Source: Novakomyces olei (Eukaryota). Taken from it: 64,000 nucleotides of DNA. This document shows positions 45,535-64,000 of this stretch, in pieces. The stretch lies in assembly GCA_016906335.1 (NCBI GenBank), contig JADEYG010000015.1, forward strand, positions 806,001-870,000. Reading direction: 5' to 3'. The notes under the pieces are model-generated. The model saw nothing but the letters and a program-made list of their open reading frames with translations. It made no database searches and was not told the origin of the DNA. Both the position numbers and the translations under genes were made by a program. Every line of letters starts with the position of its first letter. The first letter of the stretch is position 1.

Positions 45535-46996
<1,462 letters not shown>

Positions 46997-47284
46997 TCAA
47001 AAAATTTTGTAGTTATTAGTAGTCTTAGGAAAACTTCGTTTTAATTTTCCCCCTTTGAATTCAGTATAGACGAGATCAGCACCTTATTCAAGTAAAGCTT
47101 ATAGTTAGTAAAGGGCGGCTTTAATATGTTCAAATAATTCAATTCTATTTATCAACTAATAATAATAAAAATAAATAATATTAATTGTTTATTATATAAA
47201 GATATTTAATATAATTAAAAGTGCAAAAAGCAATCAGAGGTGCGTATCCTTATATGTTCTTAATTACATAAGAAAAAAAGGAGA

Positions 47285-47366
47285 CGTCAGTAACAGGACT
47301 CGAACCTGTGAGGGCAGAGCCCATGAGATTTCTAATCTCACCCAGTAACCACTGTGGCACACTGAC
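47285..47366 (-). tRNA. tRNA-Ser (anticodon AGA), intronless
   Basis: Minus strand GTCAGTG-TG-CCA..TGG-G-TGAGA TTAGAAA TCTCA-T-GGGC TCT GCCC-TC-ACAGG TTCGAGT CCTGT-TACTGAC-G: all stems pair, long variable arm, G73, T-run downstream. Confidence 0.93.
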
Positions 47367-47819
47367 ATTATTTAGTTGGACCATCCGACCCGATATTATG
47401 ACAGAAAACGTTTGATTTAATTTATAGCGGATATTATTTTGCTATTTCAAGCCTATCGCTCTATATCATTTTAGTCGAAGTCGACGTGCGGGCGCACAGT
47501 CTATAGAAACATCAACCAAAGATCAATTATAATTTAATGATTGCAATTGCGAGCCCTACAAGCCTGTTTTAGCCCGTTGTATAGCTCAACCGGTTTAGTT
47601 CAGATTGTCTGCTTAAAGCGATACTCAAAATGAGCGCCCAAGATAATCCCTATAGTTTAATTTGTAGTAATGCAAAATACGAGCTTTGCGAAAGCATTCC
47701 AGATGCTTGCAAATTTTAAAGTTAAGAGTATGCTTTTCATCGTCCGATTGAGAGCGGCCATAAAAGCCGGACCAAATTTCAACAAAATTGTGAGCCGAAC
47801 CATACACAAAGTCGCGAAA

Positions 47820-49882
47820 ATGGCATCTAATTTCAGCATAGGCTACCCAACAGCGCCTCAAGACGCGAGCGCGTTTGTGCAATACTTTCCCGATCGCAGT
47901 GTGCCAGACCCTTTTCGGCCTTTAGAAGATCTAAACAGTGAAGTGACGGCGGCGTTTGTGGACGAACAGAATCGCATCACTAGTCGGAGTGATGATAACG
48001 CGGACGCTAAACAGAATTCTGGATTGTATTTTCGTCGTTTAGGTGACGAACAGAGTAATGATATTTCTGATTTAAATCTTGAAATAGATGCGCCACGCTC
48101 GGTTTTGGTCTCACATGATGGAGACTATGTCGTGGTAACCGAATGCCAAAGGAAAGAAGCGAACTGCCGGCTTTATATAGCAGACTTGCGCGGGAAACAG
48201 GACCATTTATCTGAAGAAAATCTTAACTTTATCCTTCTCGCTCACGGTGACATTCACTCATACATTACGAATGAAGGTTCAAAATTTTTTTTAGGACCAA
48301 AGAAGGCGCCCCAAGATCGAAACTAGTAGTTATAGATTTCCAAAACATTGAAGAGGTACAAATCGGTTTTAAATTATCCTCTAATTCTCCTATGAATTTG
48401 GCTCCTTGCGATAAATTGATTGTGTGCCTGATAGGATAACTGACTTCGACAGGGGGTTTCCGACGTTATCCCTGAGGACGAAATCCGTGTGCTGGACGGA
48501 CTTTATTGCGTGCGTGACAATATTTTGATTGCGCTCTATGATCATGATATCAAACACAAGATATCTCTATGGGACTTGAATGGGAATGAGCTCGAGTCTC
48601 CGATCTCCCCATCGGCATCATGAGTGTCACGGCAAGGCACAATGCTTTCATTTTTTTCATCAGTGTTGAATCTTTTCTTGCGCCAACCGAGATATATAAA
48701 TACGAGTTTGCAGAGAGAGAGCAAAATAGCCTTCTTGATGCACGACCGGGTTCACTAAGTCTCTTCAAAAAAACCAACGTGAAGGGCCTTGATTCTCATG
48801 ATTACGTTAGTAAGCAGGTAAGAGGTTTTTACACAAATGTACTCTGACTAGCAACAGATTTTCTACGAGTCAGCAGACGGTACGAAGGTGCCAATGTTTA
48901 TCAATCATCATAAGTCAATTTCGTTGGATGATAATTCTCCTACCTTACTCTATGCTTACGACGAATTCAGCCTCAATCTTTTGCCGAGTTATTCTCCTTT
49001 ATGGTAAGATTGCCCTTTAAACCAAGATCATTAACCCAAGCAGGACCGCATGGATGAAATATTTCGGCGGTATTTTGGCAGTGGCAAACATCCGCGGAGG
49101 TGGCGAGTATGGCGCGGATTGGCACAAAGCAGCAAAAAATTTCAAACGACAGAATGAATTGTATGTGTTGCATTTATTCTTTTGCCTTATATCTTCATTT
49201 GCTGTTTCTGGTTTTCTAGTCTAATTCTAATTCTAATTTAATTCTTTTTTATTTTTCATTATTTTTTTTTTATTTTTCAAAAATATATTGGGTAAGTCGC
49301 TAAATGTCAGTGATGATTTCCAGTGTGCTTCCTGCTATCTTCAATCAAAAGGCTATTTAATCCCGAAACGTACGGCCATCAATGGTGGGGGCCTACTTTG
49401 CGCTGTTTGTTTGAATCAAGCTCCGGAGCTTTATGGATCGGTGACTACAGACGTGGGCGTAATGGATGCTACGATTCCAAAGGCATAGCACTGGATGTAC
49501 AAGTACAAGTACAAGTGAGTTTGGGAATCCGGAAGAATCAATAGAATTGTTTGATTTATTCAAAGTATGCCTATCTCTTGTATTTGAGAAATTAATGATT
49601 TAAGGTTATTCGCCGCTGCACAATGTATCACCTACAAAGGAGTACCCAACGGTTGTGCTAATGACTTCTGAGCACGACGACGACATGGTTACTGCGCACT
49701 CGCTCAAGTTTATTGCACAGCTCCATCACACAAAGCCAAATAATCCAAATCCTCTATTTGCTCGAATCAGAAAGAACTTCCTACATTGTAAGGTAATGCA
49801 GAGAAATTTTGGGTTTGAAGCAACAGTTGAAAATTTGGCTGTTTTATCACTGGCTTTAAAGGCACAGTTTAAAGATGCTTAG
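47820..49882 (+). pseudogene. Prolyl oligopeptidase (S9A) pseudogene
   Basis: POP motifs VPDPFRPLED, QIFYESADGTKVPMFI, ANIRGGGEYG..WH, FDDF, YSPLHNV and SEHDD...HSLKF. Lesions: GxSNGG reduced to NGGGLL, frameshifts near 48290, 48600 and 49467, and a shortened beta-propeller. Confidence 0.85.
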
Positions 49883-50436
49883 ACCTATAAAGTGAATCCC
49901 TAATGCCTCAATGCACTAGACGGTGTGCTCTGCATCTACATCTTATTTTAGTCGCAATAGACATTTCATTGCGAATTGAATAAGTTTACATCCGTCGCTC
50001 TCAGTCTGAACTTTTGAAAGCGCAGCAATGACTCGCGCGGATTGCAAAGATCGATTAAGCAATGCAAGCATGAAGATTCGCATAACGTACTTTTTACCAC
50101 AATATTCAACGTGACGGACAAGATTAATAGTGCTTTGTCATATTATTATGACACTATCTCATAAGCGCTCGATTTTTATATGATAATACTATTCTCTCAA
50201 GTAAGCAGTGCACGCGTTCCCGGTCCTCGGTAATAAGCGAAAGAAGTTACGCACTCTATATTACAAGTAAACGTTTTGCCTCGTGATAATACTATTATAA
50301 ATTGAATAAAGTCAGACATCCCCGGAAAAATGAATATTCAAAAAATTTGACATGTATGGTAAAATTCCCATAAGATTTGATTTGAGCACCTTTTACTATA
50401 ATATATGCATTGCGCCGACGGTAGATCGCATCTGCA

Positions 50437-53400
50437 ATGGACAAGATCGAGTCGCAGAGCGATACATTTTCAACTGTTGATTTAAAAGAGTATGATCAAC
50501 AGCAAAATGTGCCGCTGGATCGGCCGACCTTGACTGTTTTGCTTATCGATTTCCACGACAGGTATGGCTTTGGTTATGCTGGCATCTTCCTCGTCGACGC
50601 ATGCTTTTTTTTTTTTTTTTGCTTTTTTTTTTTTTTTTTTGATCTTTCGACACATTCAGCCTTTGAGATTCTCATAATTCAAACAAAATCTCATCATTCA
50701 GCTACATATGGAACGTTTACCGGCTCTTGAAAAGCTCTGACCCCGAGCGCGATGTCAACGTAGTCACGATATACATTGATCAATTATGTGTGGAATGGCT
50801 ACGGGACAACTCACCGTCGTTCGACGCTATAGTCATGTCGCCCGGACCAGGTAATCCTCAGCAATATGCGGTCTTGGCGAATACGATCTGGAGCCTGGAT
50901 CCGCCTGTTCCAGTGCTTGGAATATGTATGGGTTACCAGTCGCTGTGTCTATATCTCGGAGCCAAAATCGAGGAGCTTCCCATGCCCGTACACGGCCATG
51001 TTTCCCAGGTAGTAAGCGACGCGGACGACGAAGGCGCTACTGGAGCACGGCTGTTTCGTGGAATAACTAAACTCGATGCAATGCGGTACCACAGCCTGGT
51101 AGCCCGCGATATTCCTACGGACAAGGCGAAAGTCGTTGCTTGGTTAGAGGATGATCCTACGATTGCCATGGCCGTTTCCTGCCTCTCACGTCCCTTTTAT
51201 GGTGTACTGTTTCACCCAGAGTCTGTGTTTTCCTCACACGGAGAGCAATTAATACAAAACTTCTATGATTTAGCCTCGCTTTATAACGCGGAAAGAGCCC
51301 CACCTCAACCTCTTGCTCCCAGTTGGAACGAACTTGATTTAAGGCCAAAGCCGTTACTACGGTCATTTGATGAGAGCAACAATGAAAGGACTATCAGTGC
51401 CGTACGCACTTCAGTGATAGAGCTGCGTTCAGCCAATGATATTGAAGCCATAAAATCTCACCTTTGTGCGGGCAAAAGCGACTATGTTCTGCTTGACTCC
51501 TGTCGATCTTCCGAACGATGGATCATCATTGGCCTATATGGCGGTCCCAAGAGCCAGATTGTGCGGTACTTTAAATCCGATTCCACAATCGAAATAACGG
51601 CACCTTCTGTACTTTTACGGAAATTCTCGCGTAACATTAAAGGTGACTTTTGGACGTATTGTGCAGAGCATATGGCTCGACAAGAGATATTTGTCGGCGT
51701 AAACGATGTACCTTTTTGGGGTGGGTTTATCGGCTCTATTGGCTATGCTTTGGGGTCAAAAGAAATGGGCGATTATGGCGGCAAAGCCAACCCAAAAGAC
51801 CCAGACTCTGCTATTTTATTTGCGGATCGTAGTGTTGTTATAGACCAGCAAAACCAAGTTGCCTATCTACAATCGCTCAACCAAAATGACCAGGCTTGGC
51901 TGGAGGGCATGCAGGACGAATTGGCAGAGGCAGTGGCAGATTACGAGAGCAAACCTAGGGACAGCACCCATGGTAACAAATTTACTGCACAAAAAACGGG
52001 TAAATGCGTGTCCTATCCAGACAGAGCTCAGTATTTACGCAGTGTTGAACGAATTCAGCAGCATTTACACGCTGGTGACTCGTACGAAGTGTGTCTGACC
52101 ACACTGACAAGCGTGCGACTGGACCCGGATCGATTGGAGGACGCCTATGTCCTTTTCAAGAGGCTGCGAGACCACAATCCAGCCCCGTTCGCCAGTCTTG
52201 TAAAGCTCAAAGATTTGTGTGTGATTGGTGCCTCGCCAGAGCGGTTCATGAGCTGCATTGATGGCTCTTGTACTTTTCAGCCGATGAAGGGCACTTTAGC
52301 CAAAAGAGATTACAAATACGAGGAAGCGGTTGAAAAGCTACAGAATCCTAAAGATTTAGCAGAGTTGCGGATTATTTGTGATCTGATTCGGAACGATCTG
52401 CATCAGATCGCGGACCCAGTGGTTTCGGTGCGCGTTCCCTCTCCCGCTGTTATTATACAAGAGTTCAAATCTGTGTACCAGCTGATCAGTAAGATTGAAG
52501 GCGAAGTATCCCACCCGTTTACTGGCTGGGATGCGCTATTGCATAGTCTTCCGCCAGGGTCGATGACGGGTGCACCAAAGCCGAGAACACTGCAAATTAT
52601 TGACTCGGTCGAGTCTCAACCACGAGGGCTTTATTCCGGTGTTGTTGGGTACTGGAGCGTTAATCAGCGTCATGATTGGAGTGTAGTAATTCGCTCTGCT
52701 TACCGTCTCCCGTCTTTTCCAGTGGGACAATGGAAAATTGGTGCCGGAGGAGCAATTACAGTGCTGTCGGATGCTAATGCAGAATGGGAGGAAATGGTTA
52801 CGAAATTGGAGTCTGTTTTGCCTGCATTAATTCCGCATACACGACATTTCAGTCTTATCAAGCCTTACAAACTGTTGGAAACTACAGATTTCGATCCCGC
52901 GAAATTAGGAGCGAAGCGCTATTATTTGCTTGAGCTGCATATTGAGCGCATGAAGGAATCGAGCTTGGTCCATGGGTTTGTGTTTCCCGGGAAAGATTAT
53001 ATCGTATCTGAATTGGATAGAATAACGCGCGCAGCTAATGAAAGAGGAAAGGTATGTAAAACTGGTTTTCGTCAAGGGTTTTTATTTATTCAAAGTGTGT
53101 AGTTCTACAATGCGTTTTTGAGATGCACTTCTAACCGTCAGCTGCGATGGACAATGGACAGTATAGGCAACGTCGACGGTAGCGTGAAGCCGCTTGAATC
53201 GAATTCCAGCGCAATTTGGACCGTGTTCATTGACGAAAAACCATCTGATACCCGTAGCAGTTTTATTAGCTGCAAAACAACTCAGCGCGATATTTATAAT
53301 CGCGCACGACAGCGATTAGGAGTCGTTGAATTGCAAGACGTGCTTTTGTGGAACGAAGCAGGCTTCGCCACTGAATGCTCTGTCTGTAATGTCGCGTTTT

Positions 53401-53642
53401 ACCGCGGCGGCAAATGGATAACTCCAAGTTTAAAGCATGGGCTTTTGAAGGGAACTCTGCGGCGAGAATTGCTGGAAAAGGGATTTATTTGCGAGGGAGA
53501 TGTTTCCATTGGATCTATTGAGCACAATGAACAAGTGATGCTCTTCAATTCTGTACGGCACGTTTTCACTGGCGTGATCTGTGCGGTAAAAGACGAGTCT
53601 GAGCGCCGTGATGCCATAGATAGCGACGCTAGTCAGGCATGA
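50437..53642 (+). CDS. abz1: Trifunctional PABA synthase: glutamine amidotransferase (PabA) + ADC synthase (PabB) + ADC lyase (PabC/Abz2)
   Basis: Introns 50562-50701 and 53052-53141. PabA: LLIDFHDSY, SPGPG, LGICMG, MRYHSL, FHPES. PabB: GDSYEVCLT, SPERF, PPGSMTGAPK, GAGGAIT...EWEEM..K. PabC follows without a stop: LLELHIERM, KTTQRDIY, VLLWN...TECSVCNV, TPSLKHGLLKGTLR, FNSVR. Confidence 0.9.
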
Positions 53643-54193
53643 TTTGCCTTTACTCAGCATCAGTGATAGAATAATACTGTAATATTTGCCTAAGCTGCAA
53701 GCCTTTCAACTTTAATATGATACTAATATTACTTTACAAGTTAGCGCGCAAAATAGAACGGCACGTAATTGAATCGGAAAATAAACGCAAATCTGTTGTG
53801 GAGTGCAGTAAGGGAACATGTGACTTGCACGATCACAAGCTCTGCAGAATAAAAACATGAATACATAATCTGAAAACAATAAAAATACAAATATACTTTT
53901 GGCGCGAGTCAGAGCTCTGCAAATTAGTACACCACTTCCGCGCTGGCTAAAACATGACTAAAATAAGAATTCTCAATTTAATTTACCATCAGCTACCCAA
54001 TGAATCATTTGTCACCACAATAAACTCTATTTGAAGCTTCCACCGAAAACTTTTAGCATACTGTCCACGCCTCCCCCGTATGTGACATCATTCCTTCCCT
54101 GACATGTACGTTTTAGCGCAAATTGGACGGAAATATATTAGAATATTCGTTGGCGTCACACCCTCATTTTATTTCCACCAATCACTATCAAAG

Positions 54194-54506: not shown

Positions 54507-57500
54507 ATGTCGTTGTGGCGGGCGTTTGCTGATAATGAGCCCGATAAACCCGCACTTTTATGGTACACGTCAGCGGATACGCTGGGCGCAAGCTTTACGT
54601 TTGGCCAGCTTTTATGGGCGGCACAAAAGTTAGCAGCACGTATCAAAAAGAGGCACACTGTCATCCCCATAATTGTCCAGCATTCTCCGTTACTCTACGT
54701 TAGCGAGCTCGCAGTTCTCTACTCCGGCAATGCCTTTTGTCCCATCTCGGTAGACTCGCCGCCAACACGTTTACGCGATATTCTCGGCATTGTTGATGCT
54801 GAGTATGTAATTCACGACGGCAGCTTTGCCAACATTGACGCTGTTGCCCCGGCAACAACTATCCTTGTAGGCAGCTCTGTCTTTGATGAACAAGGACCAT
54901 CGAATCTGTGCTCGCAGTCTGCTGCAAGTATAGACGCGTCTGCTGCCTCTGATGACGATGTTGCTTACGTTCTCTTCACTTCTGGATCTACCGGGATTCC
55001 AAAAGGCGTTCCCATAAGGCATTCGTCTACACTATCTTGTCTAAAAGCGCACGACTGGATCTACAGTCACTACAATCTTGGACCGGGATCTCGTTTCCTG
55101 CAATTTGCCAGTGCCACGTTTGATGTTTCCGTGTTTGAGATCTACTCCTCCTGGCGACATGGCTGTACACTAGTGTCTGCCGATCGGCAGACACTAGTCA
55201 ATCATCTGCCAGAGCTAATTGCCCACAGCAATGTTGTTGGACTCGAACTGACACCGGCTATGGCCGATGTCATTTCTCTAGCGCAGTACAAGCCCAATTA
55301 CCGAAACATACGCGTCATCTTATCTATAGGAGAAGCCATGACGCAACGTATGGTAGACTTTTGGGACGAGAGGCTGTTGAACGCTTACGGACCCACAGAG
55401 GCCACTATACACGTGTCCTTGATGCCCTTCAACAAACGGCTTTTACCCAATGCGATTGGCCGACCATTGGAAGGGGTCACATTTTACATCCTGGATTCTC
55501 AGCAAGCAAAAGTCTTGCCCGACGGAGCTGTCGGAGAGCTGGGAATTGCCGGCCCATTTCTTACACCGGGGTACATTCGCCGGCCAGACTTGAACAGCCA
55601 GCAGTTCCCTGAAATAGATGGGGTTAGGGTTTATCGTACAGGCGATTTGGTGCGTCGATCGCCCCTGCATGGCTACTATGAGATCATGGGCCGGGCAGTT
55701 GAGGGTCAGGTAAAACTGAATGGCCGGCGTGTTGAACTGGGCGAGATAGATGCTGCGATAAAGCCGGCAGTGCGAGAATGCGCAGTTGTTAAGATAGATA
55801 CAGGCACGGGGGGAGTGGTTGCCTTTGTAGTCGGAGACCGGCAGGCCGCTATAGCATCGGCTAAAAGCTTACTGCCGGCCTGGATGGTCCCCGAAATTGT
55901 GGAGTTGCCGGACCGTCTGCCCAAGCTGGACTCGGGTAAAGTAGACCGCAAACAGTTGGCTTCGTTATACTGTGAAAGGCAAATTGAAGATGACAGCGAT
56001 GACGCCACCGTACGCGTGTTTAGGGACTGCTTTCCCCATACAAGCTCTGCATTAAGGCGGAACACGGAGATCTCGGCTTTAGGGGTTGACTCCATCTCGG
56101 CGTTAAGGCTGAGCGGACGATTAGCAGAGGAATTAAGCGGTCAGCCGGTGAGCGCGGCACAGATCCTACGTGATTGCCGAACAATCGGAGATGTAAGCAA
56201 TCTCATTATGGCTGGCAATAATTCCTCCCAGCTGCGTCAGAGTCGAGAGTGTACTCCGTTACAGGATATGCTACTAGCCCAGACGTTAAAAAGTGGAGCG
56301 TACTTTAATAAGGTGCAGTTTCTAGTTAAAGCGGGTGTGAGTCAAGAGCAAGTAGTAGAGGCAGTTGAGCAGGTCTTGTCTCTTGATCTACTGAGCCGCA
56401 AGATCGTACAAGGCACCAGTTCTTCAGGTGCACTATTTGCCTTTGGTCCTAAACAAGAGTGCAAAATACAAACGAGCCAAAAGCCTGATGTTGATTATAG
56501 TCGAGAGATGAAGACAGCAGGCCGTCTTGTATTTGCCAAAGTATTTCCTTCTGAAGCAGGAACAATGGTGGAGCTAGTACTGCATCACGCTGTCTACGAT
56601 GGCTGGAGTGTAGAAATCTTGCGTGAACAACTGCATCGTGCGTTGACTCATACCAGTACAGAATCAACTTCCTTTTTTACATTTGTTCCAAAAATTGCAG
56701 AGCTCAGTGCTGCCCATAGGGACGCTGATTTAGCCTACTGGACTAAATATTTGGCCCAGGCGGAATCAACTAATCTGCCTATGCTGTACCCAAAGTCGAG
56801 CAGTGACGTCACTACTGATGTGGTTGGAGAGCAGTTGAGTTTTGGATTATCACAGTTGACGGCTTTTGCTGGCCGGTTTGACTGCTCACCACAGTGCGTA
56901 ATTCAGCTGGCTTGGGCTGTTGTGCTTAGCAAACTCGTAAGAGCCAGCGAAGTTTTGTTTTGCACTACGTTTTCAACTAGAGCACTCTATGCGGGATCGG
57001 AAGATACTGTAGGGCCTTTTATAGCGACAGTACCGACACGTGTTGGCCTCAGGCGATCAGTCAAAGAGCAATTACAGTCTATACAGCAGGACAACATGGC
57101 AGCTATGGATCACATTGGGCTGCCTATGTCAGACATGGCCAGCTTACCGGCCGTCAACAGCCTGGTACTTTTCCAAAGGGATTTACGGCCCAAACTGGCG
57201 GGGCAGGATGTTGATTTGGTAGCGACGAGCGATTTTTGCGAGGTAAGGATCGAGTCTGTTCATATCAAATTGTTTTTTGATTATTCTTTTTTATTTTATT
57301 CGTTTATGCTGACAGCATTTAGTATGACGTTCTGGTAGAAATGGAAGCATTCGACGAGAGCGATAGAGTGGTGGCAAGATTGACATCCTCACGAATTGCG
57401 GCTGAAGAATTAAAAGTCTGTTTGACCGGCTTAATTAATGTCCTTGACGAGTTTGTTGTTGGAAGGACTACGCAGATTCCAGCAGAAATTACACCGCTCT

Positions 57501-60500
57501 CAGTTTCTAAGCTTGTGGTGCCGTCCTTGCCAGCTCCCTTTGAAAACTTGGTTCAAATGGTATCAGATTCCTGCTCCAGGCTCGGAGACAAAACGGCCAT
57601 CGAATTCACTGATGATCTGCGAAATATTGTCCGCTTAAATTATAGAGAATTGGACGACTTGTCCAACAACGTCGCCGCCACTCTGAGCCAGAGTTTTGGT
57701 GCCAACGACATTATACCAATAATTATGAAAAAGTCGGCGTTTGTTTATGTTTTTATTTTGGGAATTTTGAAAGTAGGAGCATGCTACCTTCCGATGGCAG
57801 ATAATGTTCCGTTGGAGAGACTGAAGCTTACATTACAGTCGGTTCGCACTAATCGTATCCTGACTGACGATGCTTCTCGATACCCCGGCTTTGAAGCAAT
57901 CGTTATCGATCCTCGTAAAACGGCCGCAGCTCCGTTCAAGCCAAGGAATATTAGCAAACAGCAGAGGGCCTATATTATATTCACTTCGGGGACTACAGGT
58001 ATGTTATATCGCAAAGTATTTTAAATGGATTGTATTTAAGAACTGCAACGAGCTATTTCGTAATGTTTTGTTTTCTTGCCCCTTCTTCTCTTCAGTATCG
58101 CTTAAATAGCTCTAATCGTACCCAGGAACACCAAAGGGATGTGTACTGCCACACGAGAGTATTGTTTCAAATGTTTACAAGCTATCCAAAATCTACAAGG
58201 GCGATAAATGGTCAAAGATTCTCCAATTTTCTGGTCTTTCCTTTGACGTATCTGTTTTTGAAATATTCTATACCTTTCTAATAGGCGCTACATTGTGTGC
58301 GGCACCAAGAACGCTGCTTATCGAATCACCAAACGAAGTGGTCAATACTCTGCAAGTCACGCACCTTTCATCAACGGCCACGGGACTCAGTCTCTTCTCC
58401 CGTCAGCGGTGCCCGCGAGTACAAGTCGTGATTACTGCTGGCGAAAAGATAAACGAAAGCATCATGGACGAATGGGGTGCAGCCAGTGGATGCATCCTTT
58501 ACAATTCCTACGGTCCGACGGAAATGACTAATGTATGTACATGCAAGCCCAATTTTAGTCCTCGGGATAGGACGTATGATATTGGATGGCCTTTACCCGG
58601 CATTGTTTGCATAGTCGTTGACGAAAAAGGAGGGATTGTTCCAAAGCTCGGGGTGGGAGAGCTTTGTTTCCGAGGAGACCAATTGGTAAGTTTTTGTCTA
58701 TTTAAATAACTTTGTTTATTGGCTTGCATATTGTTTCATCTGATTCGTTTATCTAACTATGGCTCTAGTTTTCCGGCTATATTAACAACGAAACTCAAAC
58801 TGAGTCTAGTTTGATTCAGACTAAATATGGGGTGTTTTACAAGACTGGTGATCTTGGTCGGTTGATGCTGGACGACCAAATCCAAGTATTGGGCCGAACC
58901 GACGATCAAGTTAAGCTACGTGGGTTCAGAATCGAGCTTGGAGAGATCAATGTTGCCCTTCAAGACTACGTTCACAAAAGCTGCGCTACCATTGTTACAG
59001 AGGGAGAATCGCCGGCTATTGTTTCCTTTGTTGCATGCAATAGTAGAAAAGAGTTTGAAAACGCTGGTATCATCGGTGATTTTGATTACAAAGGAGCCTA
59101 TTCCAGACTTAGAGAGCGCTTACCCGAGTACATGGTTCCATCGTACATTATTCCGCTGGACTGCGGACTGCCTATAAACCAAAACCACAAGTTTGATCGC
59201 AAGAAGGCTCTTTATGCCTTTGAAAAGCTATCAAAGCAACTACTTGAGACCCGACGGCAGGATCCAAAAGCAGATGGGAATGAAAGTTTGTCTGCGCGTG
59301 AAACGGAGGTGAAAAATTGCATTGCTAAAGTACTAAACGTACCTTCCAGTGTAATTTCTAGGAATACTACGCTTATTTCCTTTGGCTTGGACTCGATCAA
59401 GGCTGTCCGATTGAGCCGAAAACTAGCTGCCGACTTGGATATTGCTCTTCCAGTGTCCAGTTTACTCGGTGGCTTATCGCTTTCTCAGCTATTGGCTCAA
59501 GCCGACGCAGCCGAGTCTCGTGACTTGCAGGCTCAAGGAGCGGGCGGCAAGTTTACTCACCTTGTTGAAGATCTGCAGTCTTACTTGCCGAGAATTTGTG
59601 AAAAGTATGGCTTACGACTCGCCGATATTAACCAGATTTTGCCCTGTTCGCCCATGCAAAACGCAATTCTAAGCCTCTCTACGGAGAACGCAGAGGGATA
59701 CTTGAATGACGTATCCATTTCGCTGCCTTTAGATTGTGATCTGCAACGGTTATCGTTGGCATGGAAATCACAAATTCGGCAGCTTCCGATTTTGCGCACA
59801 GTGTTTAAGCCGATTGATCATAAAACAGTTCCATACGCACAGCTCGTCATCAAAGAGTTGCTGTTCCCTGTGGATGCAAAAGTTCAGATTTGTAATAGTC
59901 ATGATAATAAAGATTCATTAGCAGCCTTTTCGAACGAAGGAGCATACAAGGTCCTTCTTCTACATTTTGAAGAGCAAAAAGTCATGCGGCTTCTCTTCCA
60001 CCATGCTTTATACGATGGCTGGGCGTTTGAACTTTTGCTGGCTAGAGTATGGGAGGCGTATTTGACAGGAGAAACAGGATGCAAGGCATATACCAATACT
60101 GGATTTGAAAATTACTTGGCCCAAGTATACGATCAAGACTCGACCAGAAACGAAGAATACTGGCAAAGATTGTTAGAGGGCTTTGCCTTTGGTAATCGCC
60201 TGCCTTGCCTGATACCTCTTGAAACCTCATTAGTCAATGCCGTACCTATAGTGAAAAGGAGGGCAGTTCCGCTTTCACTTAAGGTTATTGAGAACTATTG
60301 CCAGCAGAGTTCAGTTACACTTTTGTCCCTATGCCAATACTCGTGGGCCCGTGTCCTTTTCATGCTGTACAACAGCGACGATGTAGTTTTTGGTAACGTT
60401 GTTAGTGGTCGGACGGAATTTGTGGACGATGTGGAAAATTTGATTGCGCCCACATTCAACACGATACCCGTTCGTTCAAAGAAAACGGGCAGTGAAATGG

Positions 60501-63500
60501 CAATGCTCCAACAGTTTGTCAAACAAAATGCCTCATCGCAAAACTACCAGCTATGCTCGCTCAGAGATATCAAGCGCTATTGCCATGTGGATTCAGTGAC
60601 AAATTTGTTTGATACTGCTCTTATTCTACAACCCCAATCGAAGCTGCAAGGTAGATACGGCCTTGTTTTGCAGGACAATAACCCCTTTTCAGAGTTTGAT
60701 TATCTCATCGAGTTTATTGTTTGCCCTGACCGTGTTGACGTACAGCTGACGTCGACTACTCGATTGCTGGCAAAAGAACAGGATGCTGCAGTTATGGTTG
60801 ATATGGTGATCGAGTCTTTTACAAAGACAGTTGATTCTGCTCTGGATGGATCTCGGCCTTTTGACTTCCAGGGGCTGTTTGCCAATCGTCCAGACCTTTT
60901 AGCCTGCTCACAAAGTTTACAAGAGCCTGTGGATGACAATTGCTCAGTGCTGCAAAACCTTGGTACTATTGTTGCTGAGCACGGATGCAAGCCGGCAGTA
61001 TTGTTCACTGCGCCCAACTTGTCTTTGCAGGATAGTATCAGCTTTGCTGAGTTGGACCGTCAATCCTCTACGATTGCCTCTAGAATTCCGAGCTTGATCG
61101 ATCATGCGAAAAAGTACGTCCCGGTAATGATGGAAAAGTCTGTATTCTTTTACGTAATAGTGTTGGCAATTTTCAAAGCTGGTTATGTCTATGTACCGAT
61201 TAGCCCGGAAGTTCCGCGTCAACGGCTCTCTGTAATGCTACAGAATCTGCATTGTTCCCAATTAATTGTGGACGAAATTGCGCCTTTAGAAATAGAAAGT
61301 CTGCGCTCAATACGTGCCAAGGACCTTCAGGTGGGCGATCAGAAAACTCTTAGTGAACCCTACGAACTCCCTCGGCAAGGTCCAGCCTACATTTTCCATA
61401 CGTCTGGGTCGACGGGTACGCCCAAGGCGGTGCAGGTCTCTCATAAAGCCGCCTGGAGCTGCATTATTTACGCAAGTCAAGTATTCACCACTGGCCAGGA
61501 CTCACGATGGCTCCAATTTGCTGATACAACGTTTGATATGTCAATGTTTGATATGTTGTTTTGCTGGTACACTGGCACTACAATGGTCAGTGGCCGTCAA
61601 TCAACGCTTACGAGCCGTCTGAACGATATAGTCAGGTCTTTTCGTGTAACCCATTTGGACCTGACTCCATCAATGGCAGCTATTCTGCACGAGACGAATC
61701 GTGCAACTGTGGAGCTACTGTTTTGTATTGGAGAGCAGTTGTCGGATTCTGTGGCCAAAAGATGGGGAGACAAGTGTGTAAATAACTATGGGCCGACGGA
61801 GGGAGCAATGGCGTGTACGCTGCGCCGAATGAGCACTAATGGCAGCATGAAGGCTTCTAACGTCGGGTTTCCATACAAGTATACAACTGTGTACGTTGTT
61901 GACGATCGACAAAGGCTTTGCGCTAAGGGAGCCATTGGTGAGTTGGCGATTGGAGGCTCCCAGCTGGCCGATGGGTATGTGGGAAATGAAGAGCAGACCA
62001 AGGAAAAGTTTAGGACGCTGCCTTTTGCTGGAGAACGCGTCTATTTTACTGGCGACTATGTGCGAATGTTGCTGGACGGGTCTTTGGAGTATATTGGAAG
62101 GGAAGACAGTCAGGTAAAGCTTCGTGGGCAACGTATTGATCTACGGGAAATAGATCATGCTATTGCAAGGTTTGAGGAACACCATGATCATGGTTTACAG
62201 GTTACAAGCTCACATACATTTGTCCTTGAGCATCCTACTGGCAACTCACAGCACCTGGTCTCCTTCGTGGAGACGAGTAAAAGGCCAGAAAGAGAGAAGG
62301 ATATGCGAATCATGATTCGTGATTGCTGCAAGACGTCTTTGCCGTCGTACATGATGCCAGATTATATCGTTTTTATCGAATCTTTACCGTTGAGTGCGGC
62401 TGGAAAAGTGTTGAAATCCAAATTGGAACTTGTGTTCCGTGAAGAGGCTGAGAGGGCCAGCTTGCCGGACGACTCGAGTCCGGAAGGTAATCAAGAGGCG
62501 TACTCTTACGTTTCCGAATGCTTTGCCAGATTTTCCGGCAGACCAGTAGGCAAAATAAGGCCAAACATGACGATGCTCTCGTTGGGTCTTGATAGCATTT
62601 CTGCTATTCAGATGGGAGCATGGCTTCTTGAAACACAAGGCCTAAGTATCAAGCCCATTGATCTGTACAAGAATGATACACCCAGAAAACTGTCGCGCTA
62701 CATCGATACAATCTCGCGGCACAATCAGGGCAGAGACGTAGTGCCTGCCGAGTTTGCGTCTGAAATGAAAATGTGCGCACACAAACTCTTGAAACAAAAT
62801 GACGCAGCGTGGGAAGAAGAAGGCGTTGACTATGCTCTTCCCTGTACCGACAGCCAAAAGGCCTTTTTAAGCGCCTTTTACCAGAGCAACGCTTCAGCAT
62901 ACGTAAATTATAGTGTGTATGAGATTAATCAGGGGGTGGTGGATACTTTAAGTGCTTCATTAAAGAGTCTTGTTGACAACGTGCCTATGCTGCGCACTAG
63001 ATTTGTGCAGACTGCTGACTTTAAAATACCTTTTGTACAAGTCTGCGCCAGCAAGGAATCCACAATTGCTTTGCAAAAAAGATGCATTAAAGACGCTTCT
63101 GAAATAACTAGCGTCTTAAACCAGTGTCGTTCGGATTTGGCGAAATATATATGGCGGGATACGTCGGCGCTGCCTTACTCTGTTGTTCATGTTGCTTGCG
63201 AGCAACACAATTACCTCGCGTTTATTGGCCTTCACGCTATTTTTGATGCGTGGTCGTTGGATATAATGCTGAGGTCAATTATGGCATTTGATGGCAAGTA
63301 CAGTGCAAGGCTGGATACTCAAGTGACCACCGAATCTGCGCTTTTATGGATCCTTTATGAAGAAGCCCGGTGTGCCTCTGATGAGTGTAGATCGTTCTGG
63401 GCCGATCACGTTTTACCGGGTATGGGCAGCGTGCCCTCGCTGAATCCTGACAAGTCTGATACGGGAAAGACCGTTGTATCGAAATCAATTTGCGACATAC

Positions 63501-64000
63501 CTTTCTCTCGACTTGAGAGCGAGTGCAGAGCTATCGGTGTGCCATTCCAGGCTTTAGGTCAACTGGCGTGGGCTAAAGTGTTGGGCGCTTACAATGGAGA
63601 GAAGCACGTCACTTTTGGAGACGGTAAGTTGGTACCTTGTAATTGAATTTCACTTCCAATTCCATATATTTCACCGTCGATTGCTAACAATGCTAGTCCT
63701 GTCTGGCCGTCTGGGAATGTCTGGTGTAGAAAATACTCCAGTAATATGTCTAACGACGGTTCCGATAACTGTGACTTTGGAGGGAAAAGTCGGGAGTATC
63801 CTGCAAAGGATAGCTGCATTTGAAACAAGAGTTAGTGACAGGCAGCACACTCCTCTTCAAAAAATCTCTGCCTGGACGGGCGCCGGATCTGAGCCCTTGT
63901 TTGAGTCTGTGTTTGTATACCAAAGAATCGCGCGAGAGACCTCGATTGCTTACAAGCCTTTTGCCGACGATGCGACTGCAGCGGTATGGCTCTAATTATT
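54507..64000 (+). CDS. sib1: Ferrichrome-type siderophore NRPS (Sib1/SidC-like), 3' end runs off the window
   Basis: Three A-T-C modules. A: YVLFTSGSTGIPKGV, YIIFTSGTTGTPKG, YIFHTSGSTGTPKAV. T: GVDSISA, GLDSIKA, GLDSISA. C: HHAVYDGWS, HHALYDGWA, LHAIFDAWS. Introns 57243-57322, 57999-58125, 58686-58768, 63624-63696 and one starting at about 63984; GATA boxes upstream. Confidence 0.88.

Follow-up and report, generated by a model that had tools for sequence, protein, structure and literature searches.

The stretch of DNA analysed here comprises 64,000 nucleotides (nt) of Novakomyces olei (contig JADEYG010000015.1 of assembly GCA_016906335.1, positions 806,001 to 870,000; hereafter the window, with positions counted from its first letter). 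A gene on its + strand, at 50437-53642, is likely, once spliced twice, to encode a trifunctional p-aminobenzoate (pABA) synthase of 991 amino acids (aa), pABA being a folate precursor that is made from chorismate. The predicted protein carries, on a single polypeptide, a glutamine amidotransferase (GATase; PabA), an aminodeoxychorismate (ADC) synthase (PabB) and a class IV pyridoxal phosphate (PLP) domain with the features of an ADC lyase (PabC). An initial annotation of the window had proposed a fusion of these three parts of roughly 990 aa, and this proposal is upheld by domain scans, by the open reading frame (ORF) of the closest relative and by the catalytic residues that are retained. We regard the three-domain anatomy of the gene, i.e. 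the triple fusion, as very probably real.

Gene structure and domain organisation

The gene consists of three exons on the + strand, with a spliced coding sequence of 2976 nt (991 aa) and a single terminal stop codon. Its exons and introns are as follows.

50437..50561, + strand: exon 1, ATG start and 41 2/3 codons, ending in ...TLTVLLIDFHD and the AG of a split Ser codon
50562..50701, + strand: intron 1, 140 nt, GTATGG...CAG, phase 2 (predicted)
50702..53051, + strand: exon 2, 2350 nt, encoding the GATase, the ADC synthase, the linker and the N-terminal 77 residues past the PabB end (lyase domain start)
53052..53141, + strand: intron 2, 90 nt, GTATGT...CTAAC (53131)...CAG, phase 0, splitting the class IV PLP domain
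53142..53642, + strand: exon 3, the 166 C-terminal residues of the class IV PLP domain, with the stop codon at 53640-53642

Exon 1 begins at the first in-frame ATG (50437) that follows an in-frame stop (50422-50424), and its joining to exon 2 yields LLIDFHDSYIWNV. In full-length homologues, this sequence is aligned with the N-terminal motif L(L/I)IDxxDSYTxN. The junction of intron 1 is a predicted one, placed by homology only. Intron 1 also contains two long T runs (approximately 17 and 19 T, with GC between them) at about 50604-50641, where the Logan contigs from both of the DNA sequencing runs considered below are broken. The open frame at 50667-53102 crosses from the PabB end, EWEEMVTKLESVL, into PYKLLETT...YYLLELHIERMKESS without a stop, as the initial annotation had stated. 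That annotation also placed a phase-0 intron with GTATGT, CTAAC and CAG signals at 53052-53141, and described the remainder of the class IV PLP domain beyond it; both are confirmed. The CTAAC of this second intron (53131) lies 7 nt ahead of the terminal CAG, and the intron holds an in-frame TAG (53100-53102), so that translation would stop at 53100 if the intron were retained. Exon 3 contains SCKTTQR and TPSLKHGLLKGTLR, and the protein ends in ...DSDASQA. The first Met past the PabB end, M792, is located approximately 30 residues inside the lyase domain, in agreement with the earlier remark that no Met is present at the start of this domain.

The domains and the putative catalytic residues were located at the positions given below.

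50754..51266, + strand: GATase class I domain, spliced aa 60-230, PF00117 with E 5.2e-28
50925-50927, 51213-51215 and 51219-51221, + strand: putative amidotransferase triad C117, H213 and E215, in the motifs LGICMGYQ and FHPES
51471..52805, + strand: ADC synthase (PabB) part, with Anth_synt_I_N at 51471-51869 and Chorismate_bind at 52023-52805
52287-52289, + strand: putative ADC synthase Lys, K571 in PMKGT, accompanied by PPGSMTGAPK and aligned with 14 homologues
52821..53051, + strand: linker and N-terminal lyase part, PALIPHTRHFSLIKPYKLLETT...ANERGK, matching positions 6-47 of a local lyase profile
53274-53276 and 53373-53375, + strand: putative lyase residues K870 (CKTTQR) and E903 (TECS), followed by T919-P920 and R932 (TP..G.L.G..R)

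The assignment of residue roles to the amidotransferase triad, to the ADC synthase motifs and to the class IV sites follows general knowledge of PabA, PabB and PLP enzymes, and the Lys of P(I/M)KGT separates this type of ADC synthase from anthranilate synthase. The motifs LGICMGYQ and FHPES are aligned in all homologues that cover the region (12 of the 15 alignment rows). Exon 2 matches the Pfam families PF04715 (Anth_synt_I_N, E 9e-07) and PF00425 (Chorismate_bind, E 5.8e-66), and on its own it passes the TIGR01823 model for fungal PabB, scoring 558.2 bits where 442.55 are required, across model positions 17-741 of 742. Additionally, among solved structures the closest homologue (P0001, see below) has its best match in the 702-aa ADC synthase 8hx6.

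On the basis of this organisation, the N-terminal class I amidotransferase would hydrolyse glutamine (C117/H213/E215) and the ammonia released would pass to the fused ADC synthase, where the 4-hydroxyl group of chorismate would be exchanged for an amino group (K571, with PPGSMTGAPK as the Mg-site motif). The resulting 4-amino-4-deoxychorismate would then be taken up by the C-terminal class IV PLP domain, in which K870 may bind PLP through a Schiff base, and elimination of pyruvate would yield pABA. That all three domains are active is a prediction, as is any hand-over of ADC between them, and channelling of ADC within the fusion is speculative.

The splice junction within the lyase domain and the quality of the sequence

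The closest relative of the N. olei protein, P0001, is encoded on a Logan contig and displays an overall identity of 63%, with values of 66% for PabAB and 57% for the lyase. P0001 carries the whole three-domain arrangement in a single uninterrupted ORF, and its sequence ...GKGRLRWTMD aligns without a gap to the N. olei residues ...ERGK|LRWTMD across the junction of intron 2; since its frame is open through the same point, the splice junction is fixed to the residue. In P0001, Aminotran_4 is matched over profile positions 11-217 of 223, starting 37 residues past Chorismate_bind and thereby including the stretch equivalent to the tail of exon 2, and the lyase region can be aligned with the 221-residue protein Mlr3007 (3qqm) from residue 13 to residue 216 of the latter. 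Beyond the lyase domain, at residues of about 875-1119, P0001 possesses an acidic, Ser-rich and low-complexity tail of approximately 250 residues that the N. olei protein does not have. A second relative, P0002 (approximately 50% identity), loses homology at exactly the column where exon 2 ends, which is as expected if a prokaryote-style gene call had entered an intron located there.

A local hidden Markov model (HMM) was built from the lyase domains of 18 other fused proteins, with N. olei, P0001 and P0002 left out. The spliced lyase domain of N. olei matched this model in one continuous stretch (positions 6-238 of 242) with 141.9 bits and exon 3 alone with 125.2 bits; the best of the 791 other ORFs of the window reached 4.2 bits.

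Furthermore, for Logan DNA contigs from two runs belonging to two studies (X1 and X2), not a single difference, insertion, deletion or joint is listed over 50300-53800, although run X1 is not independent, since the N. olei window may derive from it. One contig of run X2 spans 52584-53800 without a difference and thus covers the junction of intron 2. As the contigs are identical across this junction, an assembly error there is unlikely. Run X1 also contains contigs of 60 nt at 51696-51786, in the ADC synthase part, with depths of 3.5 and 6.6 as compared to about 1100 and with one differing letter each, which are either minor variants or errors.

The C-terminal class IV domain

Exon 3 matches PF01063 (Aminotran_4) with an E value of 2.4e-22 and 80.3 bits against a gathering threshold of 28.5, covering profile positions 98-217 of 223. 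The best match of exon 3 in the Protein Data Bank (PDB) is 4k6n, which is titled aminodeoxychorismate lyase (E 3.7e-15) and in which FKTT lies opposite the CKTT of N. olei, and the next is Mlr3007 (3qqm, E 9.7e-13). A profile of 10 fused proteins produced the same order, with E values of 7.3e-22 for 4k6n and 4.5e-21 for 3qqm (residues 14-219 of 221). The only other class IV enzyme among the 60 PDB matches listed is 3ceb (1.5e-11), which ranks below both. We take 4k6n to be yeast Abz2 and the residue opposite K870 to be its Lys251, the PLP Schiff base; K870 itself is presumably the Schiff-base Lys, E903 the Glu that contacts the pyridine nitrogen, and TP..G.L.G..R the phosphate loop. E903 and the stretch T919-R932 are conserved in nine of the 10 lyase-bearing rows of the alignment, the exception being P0002, where the homology of the gene call is lost ahead of this point. 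The C-terminal domain is, on this evidence, very probably a compact, Abz2-like ADC lyase, a prediction made from its fold relatives and retained residues.

Distribution of the three-domain layout

In a search with exon 2, PF01063 was also found in three of the 120 best matches (P0001, P0056 and P0060). A profile search of 1.84 billion representative proteins recovered 46,312 proteins at E <= 0.001, with matches to the full profile at the top of the best 150. Pfam scanning of 13 top relatives revealed GATase, Chorismate_bind and Aminotran_4 together in 10 and Chorismate_bind with Aminotran_4 in two, the remaining protein (P0002) being without Aminotran_4. Three of the 10 three-domain proteins bear a species name, namely those of Polychaeton citri (KAF2721759.1, 956 aa), Coniocarpon cinnabarinum (KAL9057469.1, 1005 aa) and the amoebozoan Planoprotostelium fungivorum (PRP81151.1, 1082 aa; P0150). 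The last of these additionally contains a C-terminal HMG box (residues 1012-1075) and may represent a merged gene model. When the lyase part of the Polychaeton protein was used as the query, eight matches were obtained among 2952 candidates; besides the query itself, a protein of Alyxoria varia was the only named one. This partial protein of 832 aa from a metagenome-assembled genome (MAG), P0272, is labelled 'Protein phosphatase PP2A regulatory subunit B' while its Pfam content is Anth_synt_I_N, Chorismate_bind and Aminotran_4; the label probably reflects an error in naming or in the gene model. A word-based search for exon 3 in longer proteins gave four matches among 479 candidates, i.e. P0001 and three PabB-class IV proteins.

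In the ESM Atlas, which covers clusters of at least 50 members and provides leads and not alignments, four clusters hold all three Pfam domains in 99-100% of their members. One is eukaryotic (65 members, most commonly Perkinsozoa) and the others are bacterial (58, 114 and 197 members, most commonly Actinomycetota). Prokaryotic loci were also searched with the fused profile: among the best 80 of 401 relatives, of which 78 were kept, none matched past residue 674 of 879 and thus into the lyase part, a weak negative, as PabC proteins of another type may escape a tblastn search that uses a fungal-type lyase and the Atlas lists actinobacterial three-domain clusters. A locus of a Corynebacterium MAG (L022) was considered as a triple fusion and rejected on account of its split ORFs.

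Full-text searching found no description of a eukaryotic, including fungal, triple fusion within the literature and wording covered, which agrees with the statement of the initial annotation that no characterised fungal example was known. The same annotation had called for an architecture search and rated the fusion as the strongest candidate for novelty in the window. The search recovered the layout in bacteria, in protists and in a few fungal entries, so that the layout itself is not new. The claim of novelty is therefore overstated: the layout is already known from bacteria, where the Corynebacterium diphtheriae protein DIP1790 was reported as active in 2007, it occurs in ESM Atlas clusters, and it is present without remark in fungal and amoebozoan entries of NCBI and UniProt.

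Phylogenetic position of the fused genes

A tree of the PabAB part (43 sequences, 689 columns, lyase columns removed) was inferred with IQ-TREE by a careful search under LG+C20+F+G4 with posterior mean site frequencies (PMSF). In this tree the amoebozoan fused gene is the first branch of a eukaryote-type clade (98/96), within which a fungal-type clade (100/100) holds three subclades whose branching order is unresolved. The first unites N. olei with P0001 and P0002 (100/100), all of them fused. The second contains P0056 and the Polychaeton, Coniocarpon and Alyxoria group (100/98), whose members are fused or N-terminally truncated fused genes. The third (95/94) comprises all 17 unfused fungal-type genes sampled, from Saccharomycotina, Taphrinomycotina, Basidiomycota and Dothideomycetes. 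The N. olei gene therefore lies not within the clade of ordinary fungal Abz1 genes but beside it. In a quick tree under LG+G4, the placement of the N. olei clade next to the unfused clade has a weak support of 61.

Approximately unbiased (AU) tests were performed on the same quick tree under LG+G4, which is more liberal than the mixture model, and with groups chosen after the tree had been seen. Under these terms, a grouping of the Polychaeton/Arthoniales fused genes (the three named species and other rows) with the unfused Dothideomycete genes was rejected (log-likelihood difference 58.5, p-AU 0.0005), and a grouping of the two fused fungal clades with each other was borderline (log-likelihood difference 9.4, p-AU 0.029). 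These results hint that the fused genes may constitute old lineages beside ordinary Abz1 and not recent fusions of it.

On the topology of the PabAB-only tree, a single gain of the lyase domain with a single later loss is more parsimonious than three gains. For Polychaeton, this topology disagrees with the species tree, and paralogy, transfer and rate artefacts are accordingly all possible. That the fused PabA-PabB-PabC gene represents an old eukaryotic lineage running parallel to fungal Abz1, and not a recent local fusion, is thus a proposal that we put forward tentatively and consider rather doubtful. If it were true, gene fission in a trifunctional ancestor would have given rise to the separate Abz1 and Abz2 that yeasts and mushrooms possess; the alternative to fission would be transfer of a fused gene between distant fungi. 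As part of this tentative proposal, the fused gene may be the sole route to pABA in N. olei.

Comparison with known systems

The nearest functional parallel is DIP1790 of C. diphtheriae, a PabAa-PabAb-PabAc triple fusion that was predicted by de Crecy-Lagard et al. (2007, PMC1971073) and that forms pABA from chorismate and glutamine at 7.0 nmol/h/mg without added PabC and complements an Escherichia coli pabA pabB mutant. Like the N. olei protein, DIP1790 is reported to join amidotransferase, ADC synthase and ADC lyase parts on one polypeptide; it is bacterial and intronless, and was compared by its published description. The N. olei enzyme probably works as DIP1790 does.

The same source calls PabB-PabC fusions common (PMC1971073), in line with the bacterial fusions to which the initial annotation had referred. 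Such bacterial proteins resemble that of N. olei in that a class IV lyase, opening with an xxLET motif, directly follows the PabB C-terminus; unlike it, they are without an amidotransferase domain, and their PabB lies on a long separate branch. The proteins of the Mlr3007 (Mesorhizobium loti, 3qqm) and PRK07546 type share a compact class IV fold of about 200-225 residues, and the best NCBIfam matches of exon 3 are PRK07546 models; they differ in being stand-alone proteins without a function in their names, and exon 3 scores far below their cutoffs.

In Saccharomyces cerevisiae, Abz1 and Abz2 are separate genes (PMC7187267), which bears out what had been stated on this point for the N. olei window. 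Coprinopsis Pab1 is likewise a PabA-PabB protein with the lyase separate (PMC7552465), and plant ADC synthase is described as bifunctional with ADC lyase treated as a separate enzyme (PMC6451014). The N. olei protein is Abz1-like in that its PabAB part passes the fungal PabB equivalog, and Abz2-like in that its lyase part is closest to 4k6n, albeit with a lyase region of about 243 residues as compared to 383 in the 4k6n chain. Yeast divides these parts between two genes, and the N. olei PabAB part is not placed among the unfused fungal genes, whose clade contains a member of the Saccharomycotina. Abz2 reportedly acts as a monomer, as Dai and colleagues are said to have found in 2013, and a monomeric Abz2 would fit the existence of ADC lyase as a fused domain.

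The Polychaeton, Coniocarpon and Planoprotostelium entries and the partial Alyxoria entry resemble the N. olei protein in their catalytic motifs, and the first three also share the order GATase, Anth_synt_I_N, Chorismate_bind and Aminotran_4. These four entries display 29-33% identity to N. olei in either part, and they belong to separate clades. None of them carries an annotation as a trifunctional protein, nor was a description of them as such found in the literature searched.

Genomic surroundings

The neighbourhood of the gene was surveyed for the features listed below.

Upstream of the pABA synthase gene: fragment of a major facilitator superfamily (MFS) transporter
45535-46611, - strand: S-adenosylhomocysteine (SAH) hydrolase ORF, Pfam E about 1e-85
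47283-47367, - strand: tRNA-Ser(AGA), found by tRNA scan and the only Rfam match in the window
47661-49882, + strand: prolyl oligopeptidase (S9) gene in pieces, comprising a beta-propeller N-domain (47661-48326) and a catalytic domain (49604-49882)
About 54507-64000 and beyond the window end, + strand: multi-module nonribosomal peptide synthetase (NRPS), A-T-C-A-T-C-A-T..., with AMP-binding, PP-binding and Condensation domains, beginning 864 nt after the stop codon of the pABA synthase gene

The pieces of the prolyl oligopeptidase gene are evidently split by introns or frame changes, and frame changes in the NRPS at about 57339 and 58025-58768 suggest introns there also. In the NRPS, the two adenylation domains that can be read at the A4 motif retain the Asp of FD(V/M)S, a residue that binds the alpha-amino group, and for this reason both look like activators of amino acids and not of aryl acids. 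The pABA synthase gene could be linked to the NRPS, but no support for such a link emerged.

Alternative explanations

A number of observations weigh against a trifunctional enzyme. The lyase domain scores below every curated NCBIfam cutoff for ADC lyase or PRK07546 (71.8 against 222 for NF005730 of PRK07546, 27.8 against 176.85 for TIGR03461 pabC_Proteo and 23.9 against 260 for NF004761), in a scan that covered exon 3 only, i.e. 166 of about 243 residues, and in which the ADC lyase models are bacterial. The tail of exon 2 is weakly recognisable by itself, with 15.9 bits over positions 6-47 of the local lyase HMM (E 3e-4 among 794 sequences), and its 77 residues after KLESVL match none of the NCBIfam families. 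Neither a canonical CTAAC nor another obvious branch-point motif was found in intron 1 (50562-50701), and both the removal of the introns and a single mRNA across all three domains are predicted from the genomic sequence. These points bear on two rival readings. According to one, merely a bifunctional PabA-PabB protein is made, by retention of intron 2 or by an early transcript end, with exon 3 being a decaying remnant or a separate fragment. Retention of intron 2, with its in-frame stop, would indeed yield PabAB with a 77-residue stub and 16 intron-encoded residues, and the gene call of P0002 ceases to be homologous at the very point of intron 2; yet exon 3 is open for 166 codons and 57-62% identical to P0001, near the 66% of the PabAB part, it retains the K, the E and TP..G.L.G..R, the splice signals of intron 2 are canonical and in phase 0, and P0001 is uninterrupted. 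A separate product of exon 3 is further disfavoured in that the only in-frame Met residues near the lyase start, M792 and M830, both lie within the fold, and we consider this bifunctional alternative highly improbable. The other reading, in which the class IV domain has a PLP activity other than that of an ADC lyase (a transaminase or similar) or is non-catalytic, draws on the failure of all curated ADC lyase equivalog cutoffs, on the naming of the best-matching PRK07546 models as 'hypothetical protein', on the PDB title of Mlr3007 (3qqm), which assigns no function, and on the difficulty of telling PabC from branched-chain aminotransferases, as noted in PMC1971073. Set against this, the top solved relative, by single sequence as well as by profile, is the ADC lyase 4k6n, the same layout displayed lyase activity in DIP1790 (PMC1971073), and a domain type that is repeatedly fused right after PabB (10 three-domain proteins and several PabB-class IV proteins) makes sense only as the next step of the pathway; a function other than that of an ADC lyase appears very improbable.

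A further possibility, which is compatible with the trifunctional enzyme and which we hold to be unlikely though well short of negligible, is that the enzyme represents a dedicated supply of pABA for secondary metabolism, through the downstream NRPS, as opposed to housekeeping folate synthesis. The NRPS lies directly downstream (about 54507) and is co-oriented with the pABA synthase gene. Extra copies of pABA synthases occur in bacterial gene clusters, for instance in candicidin producers, and this counts towards such a role. In addition, both fused fungal clades lie outside the 95/94 clade of unfused, Abz1-type genes, as would be anticipated if the gene were a paralogue or had been transferred, and the rejection of the grouping of Polychaeton/Arthoniales fused genes with unfused Dothideomycete genes (p-AU 0.0005) points the same way. 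Conversely, neither of the two readable adenylation domains of the NRPS looks like an activator of aryl acids, judging by the role ascribed above to the Asp of FD(V/M)S, and the other neighbours of the gene (SAH hydrolase, tRNA-Ser and prolyl oligopeptidase) are housekeeping-like. A twice-spliced gene for a trifunctional pABA synthase is the reading that we prefer.

Significance

The fusion in N. olei leaves knowledge of how pABA is made unchanged, and its main interest lies in an evolutionary question, as the gene belongs to a deep lineage with only two relatives, P0001 and P0002. In practical terms, annotation pipelines label such proteins simply as 'ADC synthase' (Polychaeton citri) or worse (Alyxoria varia), and a search for a stand-alone ABZ2 in genomes with a fused gene would wrongly imply a gap in the pathway. 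A single eukaryotic gene for the branch from chorismate to pABA would also constitute a compact part for pABA production. For the fungi, the existence of fused and unfused genes as old parallel lineages would bear on the origin of the Abz1/Abz2 pair.

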